Shown piece after piece: positions 16,110-29,449 of a stretch of DNA of 64,000 nucleotides. Source of the DNA: a virus; UHGV virus genome UHGV-0214148; one strand, written 5' to 3'. Position 1 is the first letter of the stretch. Every line of letters begins with the position of its first letter. Below the pieces are notes generated by a model, which saw nothing but the letters and a program-made list of their open reading frames with translations, did not search any database and had not been told where the DNA came from. The translations under genes were made by a program, and so were the position numbers.

Positions 16110-16271
16110 TTATCTCCTTACAGGTGGTTGGTGAACATTGTGGTTGTTAACCGTTTTCGGTGCCGCAACGAGGCCGAGACGAACATATTCGTCCATGCGT
16201 TGGTTAAACTGAATTTGTTTCTCACGATTTCGCATCGCGGTATTGAACATCTGTATTTGATATTCGTTCAT
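16110..16271 (-). CDS. small basic protein, paralog family member A (53 aa)
   Basis: Hand translation MNEYQIQMFNTAMRNREKQIQFNQRMDEYVRLGLVAAPKTVNNHNVHQPPVRR; lies downstream of repeat copy 1; not in ORF track (under 60 aa). Confidence 0.45.
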   Translation of the reverse strand: MNEYQIQMFNTAMRNREKQIQFNQRMDEYVRLGLVAAPKTVNNHNVHQPPVRR

Positions 16272-16330
16272 TTTTCATTACCTTTCGTAATGTTGTAAAA
16301 ACGTCAACAACTTTATGTGTTGACACCGTA

Positions 16331-16420
16331 CAGTAGAGACTGTTCCACCAGTCTCTACTGCTTTAACTTCTCTTTGGAAAAGTTAAAGCTAAGAAAAGGG
16401 GTGGTGAAGCACCCTTTTTT
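16331..16420. repeat. structured repeat unit, copy 1
   Basis: Variable hairpin (cagtagagactg/cagtctctactg) + conserved core CTGCTTTAACTTCTCTTTGGAAAAGTTAAAGC (16358-16389) + hairpin with T-run (16394-16420). Confidence 0.7.
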
Positions 16421-16492
16421 ATACCTACGACCACCATCTCGGCAGGTTACTGTACGAGGAGGAGGGGCGCTGACACGCCCCTCCTTTATTTG

Positions 16493-16666
16493 TTAGTAGT
16501 GTTCACTCCTCTTTTCAGTGAATATCTGCGTGAAACGGTTGGTAGACGGTTTTAACCGTTTATCCATGCCGAGCTGACTATACTTGTAGATACGTTGCTG
16601 TAAATTGGTCTTTGCTGCACTCTGTTCTGCAAGCATTTTGTCAGTAAAGTAGTAACCATTGTTCAT
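16493..16666 (-). CDS. small basic protein, paralog family member B1 (57 aa)
   Basis: Hand translation MNNGYYFTDKMLAEQSAAKTNLQQRIYKYSQLGMDKRLKPSTNRFTQIFTEKRSEHY; clear protein-level paralog of B2 with many synonymous codon differences. Confidence 0.6.
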   Translation of the reverse strand: MNNGYYFTDKMLAEQSAAKTNLQQRIYKYSQLGMDKRLKPSTNRFTQIFTEKRSEHY

Positions 16667-16727
16667 GGTAAGCCCTCTTTGTAGGGTGATTAAAGAAATC
16701 CACTACGGAAACGTGGTGGTGCTGTAA

Positions 16728-16820
16728 AGGGTACGCTGGTGCTACAGCGTACCCTGCTTTAACTTCTCTTTCGAAAAGTTAAAGCTATGTAAAGGGGTGT
16801 GACAGCACCCCTTTATTTTA
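16728..16820. repeat. structured repeat unit, copy 2
   Basis: Variable hairpin (agggtacgctg/cagcgtaccct) + core CTGCTTTAACTTCTCTTTCGAAAAGTTAAAGC (16754-16785) + hairpin with T-rich tail (16791-16820). Confidence 0.7.
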
Positions 16821-16821
16821 T

Positions 16822-16992
16822 TTAGTAGTTACTTCTCCTTTCGGTGAAGATCTGTACTCGAGGATTGTTAGAGGCTTTAAGCCTTTTATTTAATCCGAGT
16901 TGTTGAACCTCTCTTAGTCGTTCATTAAACCTCGCTTGTTCTGCATAGCTGTTTGAGATAGAAGTAAAGATACGTGTATTGTTGTTAGTCAT
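16822..16992 (-). CDS. small basic protein, paralog family member B2 (56 aa)
   Basis: Hand translation MTNNNTRIFTSISNSYAEQARFNERLREVQQLGLNKRLKASNNPRVQIFTERRSNY; shares QLG(M/L)xKRLK...QIFTE(K/R)RS..Y with B1. Confidence 0.6.
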   Translation of the reverse strand: MTNNNTRIFTSISNSYAEQARFNERLREVQQLGLNKRLKASNNPRVQIFTERRSNY

Positions 16993-17048
16993 GTTAAAAC
17001 CTCACACGAGTTGGGGATTAAGCTATTACGTACCGGTAATAGCGACAA

Positions 17049-17135
17049 GTAGGGACTGTATAGGCAGTCCCTACTGCTTTAACTTCTCTTTCGAAAAGAT
17101 AAAGCGCCTATGGGGAGTGTTGGCGCATTCCCCCT
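17049..17135. repeat. structured repeat unit, copy 3
   Basis: Variable hairpin (gtagggactg/cagtccctac) + core CTGCTTTAACTTCTCTTTCGAAAAGATAAAGC (17074-17105) + G/C-rich structure. Confidence 0.65.
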
Positions 17136-17153
17136 TTAGGTTGTTACCCCCTC

Positions 17154-17282
17154 TCAACTACCGACTGGGTGTTTCTTGGGTTGTGTTAACGTTGGTTGCG
17201 CTATTTCACTAACCCTTCGTTGAAATTCGAGCTGTTTTACGGACAACTCGTTTAACCGTCGAAACAACAGTTCATGTTTCAT
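17154..17282 (-). CDS. small basic ORF C (42 aa)
   Basis: ATG 17280-17282 preceded by AGGAG 8 nt upstream; hand translation MKHELLFRRLNELSVKQLEFQRRVSEIAQPTLTQPKKHPVGS. Confidence 0.35.
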   Translation of the reverse strand: MKHELLFRRLNELSVKQLEFQRRVSEIAQPTLTQPKKHPVGS

Positions 17283-17309
17283 GAACTTATCTCCTATGTT
17301 GAATTTGCG

Positions 17310-17365
17310 AAAATAAATAAAGTGTACCCCTAATCCCGAAAAGGATTAGGGGTTGCTTTTATTTA
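17310..17365. terminator. bidirectional intrinsic terminator
   Basis: Stem cccctaatcc (17327-17336) / ggattagggg (17343-17352), 6-nt loop, A/T-rich runs on both sides. Confidence 0.6.
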
Positions 17366-18174
17366 GTCGCTACGTATTGAACATGACCACATTCCTTACA
17401 TTGCACGTTGGCTTTCGGGATTGTCAGGCCGGTTAAAGGAACACGTATTTGGTACTGTGCTCCACATTCTTCACAAACAAAATCGTATTCTGGATAGACA
17501 CGACCTTTTAATTTCTCTTCTTTCCTTAGTGTGCCTGCTAAGAACAGCATCGCACCTAACGCTTCATTAATCTGCTGTTCCCATTCTCCGTCTAACGGGT
17601 AAGCGAACGCACGAGTCAACGTTTCCACCATCTCTGGAGCATTACTTACATAAACGTGTTTCAGTTCAAACTCAACACGCTGTAAGCCAAACAATACGCG
17701 CGCTGTTACTGTAACGTTATCTAATGTTTGTGCAAACACAACAGGATTATCGTCACCGTACATTGCGAATAACGCAGCACGTTCGTATTCGATATCACTC
17801 CACTCGATTAGTTCTACAGATTTAATCTCTTCCGCAATCGCTGCATTACCGAACGTTTCATGTTCCAATAATCCGACGATAACTTCATTCAACGATTTCA
17901 ATTGCTGTAAACGAATCACAGGATCGGTGTTCACGATAAGCAAACGATGCATTCTGGATTTCAACCAGTTAATCGTTCCTTCTACACCACCCCCAAACGA
18001 GCAGATGCTTATCACTTCAGGTTCGCGAAGGATAAGAGTGGATTTTCCTGCTGCCGTACTCAAGTAGAGTTTAAAAGACTTATCGCTGGACTCTACAACG
18101 ATGGCAATGTCTTCAGTTGGAACGAAGTTTTCATTGCTCAGTCCACGCGGAAAATAATCTTTAATGGTAATCAT
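17359..18174 (-). CDS. hypothetical protein (271 aa) with C-terminal C4 zinc-ribbon-like motif
   Basis: ORF track; GGAG Shine-Dalgarno upstream of ATG 18174; C-terminal CEECG...(17 aa)...CKECG. Confidence 0.8.
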   Translation of the reverse strand: MITIKDYFPRGLSNENFVPTEDIAIVVESSDKSFKLYLSTAAGKSTLILREPEVISICSFGGGVEGTINWLKSRMHRLLIVNTDPVIRLQQLKSLNEVIVGLLEHETFGNAAIAEEIKSVELIEWSDIEYERAALFAMYGDDNPVVFAQTLDNVTVTARVLFGLQRVEFELKHVYVSNAPEMVETLTRAFAYPLDGEWEQQINEALGAMLFLAGTLRKEEKLKGRVYPEYDFVCEECGAQYQIRVPLTGLTIPKANVQCKECGHVQYVATK

Positions 18175-18190
18175 CTTTTATGCTCCAATT

Positions 18191-18222
18191 AATAAAAAAA
18201 TTAAGGGCACCCGAAGGTGCCT
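18191..18222 (-). terminator. intrinsic terminator after small lipoprotein-like gene
   Basis: Stem aagggcacc / ggtgcctt (18203-18222) with 4-nt loop; on minus strand followed by AATTTTTTTATT. Confidence 0.75.
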
Positions 18223-18228
18223 TATACA

Positions 18229-18372
18229 TTAACCACGACCAGTGCACTGTGCAACGGAATTACCGTTGTCGATGCAAGTGTCGTAGCCTTTGTCGATGTC
18301 CAGATACAGGCAACCCAGAACAACAGCGATAACAACAGCGAAGATAGCTTTTTTGTGTTTTACAGAAATCAT
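18229..18372 (-). CDS. small membrane/lipoprotein-like protein (47 aa)
   Basis: ATG 18370-18372 with AGGAG 8 nt upstream; hand translation MISVKHKKAIFAVVIAVVLGCLYLDIDKGYDTCIDNGNSVAQCTGRG; lipobox-like VVLGC; optimal codons; terminator directly downstream; promoter-like motif upstream. Not in ORF track. Confidence 0.55.
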   Translation of the reverse strand: MISVKHKKAIFAVVIAVVLGCLYLDIDKGYDTCIDNGNSVAQCTGRG

Positions 18373-18419
18373 GATATAACTCCTAATTAAGTATTCGATA
18401 AATGAGTATTACGTAAACT

Positions 18420-18443
18420 CTCACCTAGGTAATATATATCTGA
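18420..18443 (-). promoter_or_regulatory. promoter-like conserved motif, copy 1
   Basis: Minus-sense TCAGATATATATTACCTAGGTGAG, ~48 nt upstream of ATG 18372. Confidence 0.5.
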
Positions 18444-18607
18444 AATCTTTTTGAATCCATATACCCTCTAGAACGCTCTAAAACGCATTCTGACGCAATT
18501 TTCTTTTTAAAGGGTAATTAGTCGTCTTAGCGGTTAAATGACTTCTGCGTGTCGTTTAGGAATAAATAAAAGGTATTCCCGTTACCCATAGAGGTAACGG
18601 GAAGTTT

Positions 18608-26779: not shown

Positions 26780-28042
26780 TTATTTAGATTTTTCGTAAGC
26801 AGCGATACCTGCGGAGATATAGCCGTTCAGACCGCCAGCCAGATGTTTCTGAGTAGAGGCAATAACTTTCTCGCCCAGAGACACTGCCTGGTTAATGCTG
26901 TTGATGTAACGACGTGCGGTACGTACAGATTCGGTCAGTTCCGGTTTTTCGTCGATCTTCACGCTGTCGATTTCTTTCAGCAGCTTCTCAATCTGCTGAC
27001 TGAATTTCTCGCGAGCCTGTTCGGTCTTACGATATTCCAGAACGTTCTTCTCAATCTGTTTACCCACTTCGTTGAAGAAGGCATTGGTCTTAGCCAGTTC
27101 GCTAACAGACGGAGTTTTAACGTTGGTTTCAGCACGGTTTTCAGCTTCCACGTAGCTGGAGCTAAAGCCGCCTTCTTCGTCATATTCCATCTTCAGCGCC
27201 ATGTTACCAAGTTTGAACTTGTTAACGTCTTCTTTGGCCAGAGCAGCGAAGTCTGCTTTCAGTTTATCAACTTTAGCGCCATCGCCTTTAACAACGTTAC
27301 CAACCAAATCCGTACCGTTGTTCAGGAAGCTCTGAACGTTACCACTGTAGTAGGTGGAAACGTGGTTCAGGATATTCTTCAGGCGCACCAGATCGTCACC
27401 AACGAATTTACCGTCGACGGACAGAGACTTGATGAAGCCACCAGAGATTTCATCTTTCTTCTGTTTGCCCAGCTTACGAATAGCTTCGTCGTATTTCTTA
27501 GAACGGGCCTGGATGGATTTACCCTGGTTGGAGAATTTCAGCCAACGATCTTTGATCTTACGGCCTTGTTCTTTCAGCCATTCCCAAATACGTTTCAGGA
27601 AGGCTTTAATGTCTTCCCACAGGGATTCACGAGCAACCTGACGACGGTTACGAGAACCGTAGGATTCGTGAGCAACAGAAGAACGGTGTTCGAAGTTCCA
27701 ACGAGAACGGATAGATTCCTGAGCAACGTCCAGCGCAGTCGCAGCGTCGTCCGGCATATCTTCTTCGGCGTCCATCGGTTCTTCACCGTCTTCGCCAGCA
27801 CCTTCACCGTCAGCAGCAGCCTGAGCTTCATCCAGAACTTCCAGCTGAGCATCAGTTTCGTCACCGTCTTCTGCCAGCAGTTCAGCGTCAGCGTCCAGGG
27901 CTTCGATCGGTTTGGTATCATGCTCGATATCGGCCAGAGTACCTTCAACAGATTCTGCTGGCAGTTCGATGCCGTCTGGAACTACAGTGGCAGTAGCTTC
28001 CATCGATTCACGAGCGGCGCGAGTTTTTGCGAAATTTGCCAT
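26780..28042 (-). CDS. acidic paralog 1 of tandem pair (~420 aa); possible abundant virion/head protein
   Basis: Track ORF 26780..28069 starts at GTG; ATG at 28040-28042 gives MANFAKTRAARESMEA, identical to the paralog 2 N-terminus; shared C-terminus GLNGY..AGI.AY.KSK; optimal codon usage. Confidence 0.85.
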   Translation of the reverse strand: MANFAKTRAARESMEATATVVPDGIELPAESVEGTLADIEHDTKPIEALDADAELLAEDGDETDAQLEVLDEAQAAADGEGAGEDGEEPMDAEEDMPDDAATALDVAQESIRSRWNFEHRSSVAHESYGSRNRRQVARESLWEDIKAFLKRIWEWLKEQGRKIKDRWLKFSNQGKSIQARSKKYDEAIRKLGKQKKDEISGGFIKSLSVDGKFVGDDLVRLKNILNHVSTYYSGNVQSFLNNGTDLVGNVVKGDGAKVDKLKADFAALAKEDVNKFKLGNMALKMEYDEEGGFSSSYVEAENRAETNVKTPSVSELAKTNAFFNEVGKQIEKNVLEYRKTEQAREKFSQQIEKLLKEIDSVKIDEKPELTESVRTARRYINSINQAVSLGEKVIASTQKHLAGGLNGYISAGIAAYEKSK

Positions 28043-28118
28043 TTTAAGCTTTTCCTCTAAGGGGAACACGTCGTTCCCCTATTGATTTATTTCAAGAACT
28101 GTACGAGCGTAAGTCTAA

Positions 28119-29390
28119 TTATTTAGACTTTTTGTACGCGCCGATACCAGCACCCAGGTAACCGTTCAGACCGCTAATGACGGTGTTAGCTACGTAGCTA
28201 ACGGCACGGTTCAGGGTCTGGTAGTTCTTCACAGACTGATCAGCAGCTTGACGTGCATTACGCAGTCCTTCCCACTTACTCTCGTCTTTTTCGTTGTTCA
28301 GCGCGTTGGACGCTTTTTCAGCAGCCTGTTGCAGTTTCACGATTTCAGAATCGTAAGCACGGAAATCTTTCAGTACGGCTTCGAAGCCTTTACCGATTGC
28401 TTCCAGAGCAGATGCTGCGCCAGCCATTTCAGAAACAGACGGAGTAGCCACTTCTTTATCGTCAGAAGCGTCACCGGTGCTCATGAAAGCAATTGCGGTG
28501 AACTTGTGGCCGCCAGCCAGTTCTTTAGTACCAGCCTGAACGTAAGCGTTGCCCGGCAGTGCCAGCAGTTTAGACGCATCACCATTTTCAAAGTTCGGCA
28601 GAGAATGCAGTTTAGACGCTGCTTTACCAAACAGTTCTACCGGCTGATCGCCACGCATTGCTTTGAATGCGTCATCGTCACCTTTGGTAACAGCGGTCAC
28701 AGCTTCACCGGCTTGTTTTTCCAGTGCACCGATAGCACCTTTCGCTTTACCTGCGGTAACTTCTTTAGCGATGGCAATAGAGCCAGCAGCATCGAATTTA
28801 CCTTCGATGGACAGTTTGGTGATAAAGCCACCAGAAATGTTGTCTTTATCTTGTTTGCCCAGCTTGCGGATCATTTCCTGATATTTCTTCGCACGTTTCT
28901 GCGCGGTCTTACCGACGTTGAAATATTTCAGTTTCAGGTCTTTGATCTTCGCGATCACTTCTTTACAGAACTGAATGAAGCGCTCGTAAAGACCCTTCAG
29001 GGTTTCTTTCCAACCTTCCTGGGCAGCAGCAGTCATGCCACGACCACGGCGATAGGATTCGCGAGCCAGTTTAGTGCGCTCCAGGTTCCAACGACGTGCG
29101 ATGGATTCCTGTGCCACTTCGTGCAGGGCAACCGCTTCTTCCGGCATTTCTTCACCGTTAGCAACGGCTTCTTCCGCCTGTTCGATAGCGTCTTCAGTAC
29201 GCTCGGTATCGGCAGCCAGGGTTTCACCGTCGGTTTCCAGCTGATCGAGCTGACCGTCGATAGATGCTACGTCCGCAAGTTGGACGTCCAGGTTCTCTTC
29301 TGCCGGTTCAACGTTGCTGATACCGTCGATTACTTCATCGGCCGCTTCCATCGATTCACGAGCGGCGCGAGTTTTTGCGAAATTTGCCAT
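28119..29390 (-). CDS. acidic paralog 2 of tandem pair (423 aa); possible abundant virion/head protein
   Basis: ORF track; ATG 29388-29390 with AAGGA Shine-Dalgarno; N-terminal 16 aa identical to paralog 1 (47 nt identical at DNA level). Confidence 0.85.
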   Translation of the reverse strand: MANFAKTRAARESMEAADEVIDGISNVEPAEENLDVQLADVASIDGQLDQLETDGETLAADTERTEDAIEQAEEAVANGEEMPEEAVALHEVAQESIARRWNLERTKLARESYRRGRGMTAAAQEGWKETLKGLYERFIQFCKEVIAKIKDLKLKYFNVGKTAQKRAKKYQEMIRKLGKQDKDNISGGFITKLSIEGKFDAAGSIAIAKEVTAGKAKGAIGALEKQAGEAVTAVTKGDDDAFKAMRGDQPVELFGKAASKLHSLPNFENGDASKLLALPGNAYVQAGTKELAGGHKFTAIAFMSTGDASDDKEVATPSVSEMAGAASALEAIGKGFEAVLKDFRAYDSEIVKLQQAAEKASNALNNEKDESKWEGLRNARQAADQSVKNYQTLNRAVSYVANTVISGLNGYLGAGIGAYKKSK

Positions 29391-29449
29391 TTCGTTTATT
29401 TCCTTTGGTTATATAACCCAATTACACGCCCCTAGAATGAGGGGCCCCC

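Follow-up and report, generated by a model that had tools for sequence, protein, structure and literature searches.

Is the gene of 47 codons that lies among the virion genes of an uncultivated phage real, and what could so short a product do for the virus? The question was raised by an initial annotation of virus genome UHGV-0214148, made from the letters alone, which described a small lipoprotein-like gene with its own promoter motif and terminator and had superinfection exclusion or lysis control in mind. We analyzed the whole 64,000-nucleotide (nt) stretch around this gene (hereafter the window). The gene belongs to a family that is catalogued with no assigned role, that of gp66 of phage SPN3US (PHROG 8574). 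We consider it an evenly balanced proposition that the product is an abundant early peptide that is tethered to the membrane, faces the periplasm, acts on the envelope and is possibly lipidated in this variant. What makes the locus noteworthy is mainly its extreme codon adaptation, its insulated and apparently early-type transcription unit, and a polymorphic lipobox.

The small gene and its family

The 47-codon open reading frame (ORF) lay exactly where the initial annotation had placed it, on the minus strand, which that annotation had omitted, and the AGGAG Shine-Dalgarno (SD) sequence was found ahead of its ATG (Table 1). Residues 1-47 of the product aligned with positions 1-47 of 47 in the PHROG 8574 profile (E=3.4e-23). 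With tblastn, orthologs were detected in about 60 GenBank jumbo-phage records, covering Seoulvirus phages of Salmonella, Escherichia and Proteus and the Erwinia genera Machinavirus, Erskinevirus and Wellingtonvirus; named examples are SPN3US gp66, SEGD1 gp067, ChrisDB gp82, Machina gp80, Asesino gp84 and Kwan gp81. In annotated records the orthologs are 45-47 amino acids (aa) long and are labelled 'hypothetical protein', and a few records carry no feature under the match. The description of the gene as unannotated thus holds for the raw window and not for its orthologs, which carry that label and form PHROG 8574. A word-indexed protein search with the single sequence returned one near-identical cluster only, so a profile of the GenBank orthologs was built. 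Run against 5.8 billion proteins, this profile recovered 31 clusters, all of 45-50 aa, and an exhaustive hmmsearch over 1.84 billion representatives yielded 11 hits only. The few hits in both large searches indicate that the gp66 family is narrow; from these matches it appears to be restricted to jumbo phages of the SPN3US, Machina, Asesino and Wellington types, one enterobacterial phage clade.

Gene order was conserved: a virion structural protein (phrog_3245), a protein of about 265 aa (phrog_8163) and an intergenic region precede the small gene. The upstream 268-aa window protein (phrog_8163) was 56% identical to SPN3US gp65, and the window also encodes the major head protein, internal head proteins and DnaB-like helicase of the same phage group; the window phage, itself a giant phage, is an uncultivated relative. 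The window protein and SPN3US gp66/PHROG 8574 agree in sequence (43-60% identity), in length (45-50 aa) and in an invariant C-terminal Cys-loop, and their genes agree in syntenic position and in an upstream promoter element. They differ at residue 21, where the window protein, ChrisDB, Caitlin and Kwan have a cysteine and SPN3US, Machina and Asesino do not. Further, the hydrophobic run of the window protein is shorter than in the family and its juxtamembrane stretch is more acidic (DIDKGYD). The window gene is monocistronic with its own terminator, whereas gp66 of the relatives lies in an operon, with 0-2 genes before it and several small genes after it. Asesino, phiEaH2 and pEa_SNUABM_29 have a gene for an 81-aa protein (Asesino gp83, L012 875-1120; also L010 889-1134 and L029) in first place behind the same promoter, directly before the gp66 homolog; the protein has 2-3 hydrophobic segments and a basic C-terminus ending in KAKFKK. 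This protein has the appearance of a holin or another small membrane protein and is not in the window.

Four strain variants of the window phage showed 0, 1, 3 and 5 nt differences in the ORF, and all of these were synonymous. In the 56 nt downstream of the ORF, two of the four variants had 14-15 differing positions. Variation that is only synonymous within the ORF while the flanks diverge indicates purifying selection on the small gene. With this pattern, the full-length hidden Markov model (HMM) match and the conserved synteny, the ORF is a real gene, far beyond chance. That it is instead a chance ORF or a non-coding RNA locus is vanishingly improbable; its small size alone speaks for this, and against it stand the full-length family match, the conserved length and motif, the SD sequence, the extreme codon bias and the low codon adaptation index (CAI) of overlapping alternative ORFs (0.17-0.24). 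An Rfam search at the locus matched no family, which also counts against an RNA.

Codon adaptation

The CAI of the small ORF was 0.84, the highest of 45 window genes, in line with the optimal codons that had been noted initially. The major head protein reached 0.74 and two internal head proteins 0.69 and 0.67, and the mean of the 44 long window ORFs was 0.33 (standard deviation 0.11). Orthologs in other phages scored 0.47-0.69. Among 16,882 segments of 47 codons taken inside long ORFs, 165 (about 1%) reached 0.84. The weights were E. coli values after Sharp & Li (1987). The absolute CAI values depend on these weights and are to be read with caution, while the gap is large enough for the ranking to be robust. 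The extreme codon adaptation together with the strong SD sequence suggests that the product is very abundant.

Terminators and promoter

The intrinsic terminator reported directly downstream of the gene was recovered independently by a terminator scan, and its folding energy within 51 nt of sequence was -12.3 kcal/mol. The terminator of the upstream 268-aa gene is stronger, and its hairpin has a counterpart in 7/7 aligned relatives, with compensatory changes in the arms. The small gene is alone between these two terminators, an arrangement that insulates it from upstream transcription and makes it monocistronic.

When 2.2 kb around the gene were compared by megablast, known phages matched only in 40-90 nt of the upstream intergenic region. 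A more sensitive search found the orthologous position conserved, in SPN3US at 65336-65436, just ahead of gp66 at 65485. In 11 of 14 relatives, the core TTTCAGATATATATTACCTAGGTGAGAG (window 18418-18445) stood near-invariant ahead of the operon with the gp66-family gene, and it was kept although the surrounding coding DNA had diverged past megablast detection. A core of about 50 nt occurred 4-6 times per genome by blastn, also in Klebsiella, Cronobacter, Pectobacterium and Ralstonia jumbo phages. Searching IMG/VR for exact 19-nt matches gave 35 copies in 34 viral contig stretches, at 2-4 per genome. Behind 28 of these copies came an SD sequence and an ORF that started 27-87 nt downstream (typically about 54 nt), and most copies directly followed a terminator T-run. 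With a terminator before and an SD sequence and ORF after most copies, the element behaves as a promoter. The promoter-like motif seen initially upstream of the gene thus proved well founded: the element had 0 occurrences in shuffled sequence and is near-invariant in relatives. Any further copies implied by the designation 'copy 1' are not this element, since the promoter core occurs once in the 64 kb window, which outside the small gene holds mostly virion genes. A scan for sigma-70 promoters ahead of the gene found none, and the region had fewer such sites than shuffled sequence. A literature text search with the promoter core returned unrelated papers only.

The early consensus of the AR9 virion RNA polymerase (vRNAP) is AAATATATATTAT-6N-G+1 (PMC5312081, PMC7598289). 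The window promoter, ATATATATTAC-CTAGGT-G, has the same layout when sequence architecture is compared. Like promoters of the AR9/phiKZ type it is extended, highly conserved and AT-rich, is followed 6 nt later by a G, and occurs in several copies ahead of operons. It differs in that the block of the window clade is longer than that of AR9 (about 30 nt, TTTCAGATATATATTACCTAGGTGAGA), is near-identical across several genera and has only the 2-4 exact copies per genome given above. By this analogy we infer that the promoter is of an early type and would be read by a virion RNA polymerase from a start near 18422. Just upstream, a duplicated 10-nt element has invariant columns (G-C-G-T...A-G-x-G-C-G-T-T) in 7 aligned orthologous upstream regions and is not in non-orthologous promoter copies; it may be a locus-specific regulatory site. 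Leaders of this promoter class (L031, L042, L050 and others) carry a short hairpin at the predicted +1, with arms that vary (GAGATTAC...GTAATCTC, GAGAGT...ACTCTC). The hairpin of the window leader (18403-18422) is weak, with a stability no better than that of shuffled sequence, and those at other promoter copies are clearer.

Architecture of the peptide

Family comparisons were made with 39 unique members, and motif invariance and the AlphaFold2 model refer to a 32-sequence alignment. The N-terminus had been likened to a signal peptide ending in VVLGC, and this description fits: MISVKHKK is followed by a 16-residue hydrophobic run, and the 17-residue Kyte-Doolittle maximum was 2.67. In 39/39 members, 2-4 N-terminal Lys/Arg residues precede an unbroken hydrophobic stretch, which spans 15-22 and typically 18-19 residues. 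The C-terminal module [DG]-Y-x-x-C-x3-G-x-S-x3-C-T-G-R-[GS] was likewise found in every one of the 39. C33, G37, S39, C43, T44, G45 and R46 were invariant and all occur in the window protein, with a Cys spacing of x9. The peptide has a total of three cysteines (C21, C33 and C43), so that two, and not the three counted initially, come after the putative lipobox Cys. AlphaFold2 (predicted local distance difference test, pLDDT, 87.6) gave a helix at residues 4-35, an N-G-N-S turn and a second helix at 40-44. In this model the C-terminal module would be a helix-turn-helix hairpin with its two invariant cysteines apposed beside the membrane.

The Cys-loop seems to be an autonomous unit, as it is repeated in one unrelated protein and kept in distant relatives. 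The unrelated protein (P0032, 381 aa) has four tandem modules of the form A-Y-[ND]-x-C-I-G-[NS]-G-[NA]-[ST]-x-x-Q-C, and the distant relatives (P0033-P0036, 45-51 aa) keep the transmembrane (TM) segment and the Cys-loop and have no lipobox. In P0032, hydrophobic segments at the N-terminus precede the repeats, the C-terminus is Cys-rich, and the sole Pfam match is a sub-threshold thionin. The genomic context of P0033 was uninformative, with contigs of <2 kb. A Pfam search with the window peptide found no family at E<=0.1, and a PDB sequence search gave noise only. No PDB structure matched below E=4 in Foldseek, and likenesses to thionin and helical-hairpin toxins fell short of significance. The PHROG search gave no match besides 8574 apart from a weak one to phrog_4297 (E=0.042). 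Taken as a whole, the initial picture of a genuine small gene with its own promoter and terminator, encoding an exported or membrane-associated peptide, was supported.

Table 1. Features of the small gene and its transcription unit (window coordinates)
Feature	Position	Strand	Remarks
47-codon gene, product MISVKHKKAIFAVVIAVVLGCLYLDIDKGYDTCIDNGNSVAQCTGRG	18229..18372	minus	coordinates include the stop codon; SPN3US gp66 ortholog, PHROG 8574 member
Shine-Dalgarno sequence AGGAG	18380..18384	minus	7-nt spacer to ATG
Hydrophobic segment AIFAVVIAVVLGCLYL, codons 9-24	18301..18348	minus	signal-anchor or signal peptide; follows basic K5, K7, K8
Disputed 'lipobox' Cys21	18310-18312	minus	inside the hydrophobic segment
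Cys-loop module GYDTCIDNGNSVAQCTGRG, codons 29-47	18232..18288	minus	conserved; predicted periplasmic
Cys33	18274-18276	minus	invariant
Cys43	18244-18246	minus	invariant
Intrinsic terminator GGCACC-TTCG-GGTGCC + CTTAATTTTTTT	18194..18221	minus	starts 8 nt past the stop codon; terminator scan, RNA fold
Phage-specific promoter AAAAAGATTTCAGATATATATTACCTAGGTGAGAG	18418..18452	minus	AT-rich core ATATATATTAC at 18429-18439
Predicted transcription start	18422	minus	G 6 nt past the AT-rich core; phiKZ-related vRNAP rule (PMC5312081); leader of about 50 nt
Duplicated 10-nt element GCGTTTTAGA/GCGTTCTAGA-GGG	18464..18486	minus	just upstream of the promoter; 7-phage alignment
Intrinsic terminator of the upstream 268-aa gene	18561..18603	minus	12-bp stem and T-run; terminator scan

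Lipidation and processing

The classical lipobox [LVI][ASTVI][GAS]C and a permissive pattern in the style of PROSITE PS51257 were applied to the family. The lipobox check that the initial annotation had suggested could thereby be run as patterns: V-L-G-C of the window peptide failed the classical pattern and passed the permissive one. The n-region (K5, K7, K8) and the h-region (A9-G20) before C21 were within the lipoprotein range of 7-22 residues. No member of the 39 matched the classical lipobox, position -2 being Leu or Phe, and 16/39 matched the permissive pattern. A Cys occupied the lipobox column in 18/39 members; in the remaining ones the residue was V (as in SPN3US gp66), S, A, T, I or W. 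The Cys that would be lipidated is not conserved among orthologs, and lipidation is not a defining property of the family. In the form given initially, the lipoprotein call did not find good support.

Processing of V-L-G/C21 by Lgt and LspA, which would make the window variant a true lipoprotein, is possible, with the balance tilted against it. The variant passes the permissive rule with K5, K7 and K8 ahead of Cys21. Where family members have the Cys (18/39), it sits at this one column across several sub-clades, and with few exceptions the residue at -1 is Ala or Gly. The Cys-bearing members have an odd number of cysteines, so that two would remain for a disulfide. The window variant appears to be among the most lipoprotein-like of the family, having the shortest hydrophobic run, of 16 residues, and an acidic stretch that begins with Asp at +5; the Kwan ortholog carries the UniRef auto-name 'Lipoprotein', and T5 Llp is a precedent for an early, disulfide-containing superinfection-exclusion lipoprotein. 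However, 21/39 members including SPN3US gp66 lack the Cys, and none fits the classical lipobox. No member has Asp at +2, so that lipidated members would be bound for the outer membrane. This would not apply to orthologs without the Cys, which are encoded at the same locus and have the same promoter; with such different destinations, orthologs would act at different sites. The hydrophobic run also goes past the Cys (+2 to +4 are L-Y-L), the AlphaFold helix is continuous through the site, and the equally ambiguous MgrB is not lipidated (PMC2789325). Cleavage after residue 20 by signal peptidase I, as in a Sec signal peptide, would free a soluble 27-residue periplasmic peptide stapled by a disulfide, and this we hold to be improbable. 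The -1 column is small (A/G/S/T) in 35/39 members and several Cys-less members have a classical A-x-A, such as A-F-A/V in SPN3US, 20 residues from the N-terminus; yet the hydrophobic run extends 3-7 residues past the site with no polar c-region or helix breaker, a run of 15-22 residues has transmembrane length, some members have Val, Ile or Leu at -1, and the predicted helix is again continuous. At the family level, the rule-based label 'Lipoprotein' on the Kwan ortholog is unjustified and calls for caution in annotation. The gp66 family offers a natural test case for how easily a lipobox is gained or lost within an orthologous peptide.

Proposed role

The apparent early-type promoter, the predicted high expression and membrane tethering, the tiny and strictly conserved putative periplasmic hairpin, the clade restriction and the variable operon partners together argue for a stoichiometric, envelope-directed early function. 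In the scheme we propose, a virion RNA polymerase injected with the genome would read the promoter, and the peptide would be made at once after infection and in bulk. Its basic N-terminus and hydrophobic segment would insert it in the inner membrane in an N-in/C-out orientation. At the periplasmic face, the C-terminal module of about 22 residues would fold as a hairpin stapled by a Cys33-Cys43 disulfide. Most family members would probably keep the hydrophobic segment as an uncleaved anchor; in the window phage (V-L-G-C21), the segment might instead be processed to leave a 27-residue lipopeptide. The tethered hairpin would then bind an envelope component stoichiometrically, and the most likely outcome would be that the entry of later phages is blocked (superinfection exclusion) or that the envelope is otherwise conditioned early. 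Superinfection exclusion, which fits better with an early-type promoter, would be the best-precedented role and is our leading functional hypothesis, held tentatively and at clearly less than an even chance.

Several points weigh against this proposal. The evidence is not specific to superinfection exclusion over other envelope functions, and high abundance would be equally compatible with a membrane-perturbing role. Early timing would follow from analogy to AR9 and phiKZ promoters, and not from data on this clade; a literature search found no transcriptome of the SPN3US-type clade. The Cys33-Cys43 disulfide is suggested by invariance and by the AlphaFold model. Absolute CAI values and lipobox matches depend on the weights and patterns used, and no paper mentioning SPN3US gp66 was found in the literature.

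A peptide that perturbs the membrane, as a Hok/Gef-like toxin or a viroporin would, might depolarize or permeabilize the inner membrane early and shut down the host. This is unlikely, even though the size and layout are those of type I toxins (basic N-terminus, one TM segment, short periplasmic Cys tail), the very high codon adaptation suggests mass action over catalysis, and fold and Pfam comparisons faintly, without significance, recall thionin and helical-hairpin toxins. Every fold match had E>4, neither Hok/Gef nor another toxin family was found in Pfam at E<=0.1, the strictly invariant polar C-terminal motif suits a specific partner and not generic membrane damage, and early depolarization would harm a phage with a long, energy-dependent cycle. 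Less probable again, and in our view very doubtful, is a component of a lysis cassette (o-spanin, holin or antiholin). The peptide is small and membrane- or lipoprotein-like, it weakly matches the Rz-like spanin family phrog_4297, and in Asesino-type phages the 81-aa multi-TM protein with a basic C-terminus precedes the gp66 homolog. But the phrog_4297 match is limited to the hydrophobic N-terminus, and no i-spanin-like neighbor is present, the adjacent 268-aa and 271-aa proteins having no N-terminal TM segment. Further, the peptide has zero prolines, its lipobox is not conserved, its promoter is of the early type and its neighbors are virion genes and genes of unknown function. The idea of lysis control raised in the initial annotation was unsupported for the same reasons, there being no lysis gene nearby, no endolysin neighbor and no i-spanin partner. 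Early transcription in Chimalliviridae takes place inside an early phage infection (EPI) vesicle derived from the inner membrane (PMC13282480, PMC13434031). The peptide could mimic small membrane-protein regulators of the host, MgrB being an example, or belong early on to the EPI vesicle around the injected genome, a reading that we also rate as unlikely, by a hair less so than the toxin. If it were true, the peptide, made in bulk right after injection, would attach with its TM helix and its hairpin, stapled by the disulfide beside the membrane, either to a particular inner-membrane protein of the host or to the membrane of the vesicle, envelope-stress signalling would be silenced or the early compartment stabilized, and the polymorphic Cys21 would reflect repeated switching between protein anchor and lipid anchor in one orthologous family.

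An envelope-directed early peptide would give the gene a wider interest. Small genes with no assigned role are an acknowledged blind spot in work on jumbo phages, and their function was listed as an open question in a 2026 review (PMC13282480). The gene is a good experimental target, being clade-wide, under purifying selection, codon-adapted above the capsid gene and preceded by a promoter like those of injected polymerases. Its peptide may rank among the first and most abundant phage products at the cell envelope, and identification of its partner could show how SPN3US-type phages secure the infected cell.

Neighboring loci

The gene directly downstream (17359-18174, minus) encodes a 271-aa protein with a C-terminal CxxC...CxxC zinc-ribbon-like motif, for which only sub-threshold Pfam matches and a weak match to phrog_10180 were found. 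It has its own SD sequence right after the terminator of the small gene and its own terminator at 17326-17353. Beyond it (16110-17358, minus) lies a tandem array of four small ORFs of 53, 57, 56 and 42 aa, two of which are 40% identical paralogs. A leader of about 100 nt is repeated ahead of three of these ORFs. It combines three hairpins: a terminator, an invariant one (TTTAACTTTTC-GAAA-GAGAAGTTAAA) and one with arms that covary from copy to copy (GTAGAGACTG/CAGTCTCTAC, GGGTACGCTG/CAGCGTACCC and GTAGGGACTG/CAGTCCCTAC). An Rfam search of the leaders in this array returned no match. The two internal head proteins are phrog_2497 paralogs (26780-28069 and 28119-29390, minus; CAI 0.69 and 0.67), and their genes share a 49-nt stretch at the 5' ends that is 100% identical (repeat D5, 27996-28044 and 29344-29392).

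Comparison with known systems

Two small proteins invite comparison with the window peptide. MgrB of E. coli and Salmonella, which inhibits the sensor kinase PhoQ, has a potential type I or type II signal and was shown to be uncleaved, N-in/C-out and not lipidated (PMC2789325). Like the window peptide it has 47 aa, a basic N-terminus, one hydrophobic segment with a lipobox-like Cys and a short periplasmic tail (PMC2789325). In both, the hydrophobic segment can be read from the sequence as a type I signal, a type II signal or an anchor. The periplasmic tail of MgrB presumably also has two cysteines. Homology to MgrB was considered and rejected: there was no Pfam match (E<=0.1), and hhalign against an MgrB sequence gave a probability of 19%, confined to 14 columns of the TM segment. 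MgrB serves feedback regulation in the host, whereas the window peptide is a predicted early product of a phage.

T5 Llp is a small, early superinfection-exclusion lipoprotein that acts on the periplasmic side and has a structural disulfide (PMC9586334; bioRxiv 10.64898/2026.03.26.714494); the numbering of this bond, Cys11-Cys58, gives a mature chain of at least 58 residues (PMC9586334). PHROG and Pfam searches showed no sequence similarity between Llp and the window peptide, and the Foldseek comparison with the PDB had no match below E=4. That Llp is a lipoprotein is established; its folded domain is larger, with about 60 residues in the mature chain, it binds FhuA, and its gene adjoins that of the receptor-binding protein. 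In the window peptide, by contrast, the lipobox is not conserved in the family, the predicted exposed part has about 22 residues, and the neighbors are head/neck-region genes and genes of unknown function. What the two have in common is a small size and, as predictions in the case of the window peptide, early synthesis, action on the periplasmic side and a disulfide.

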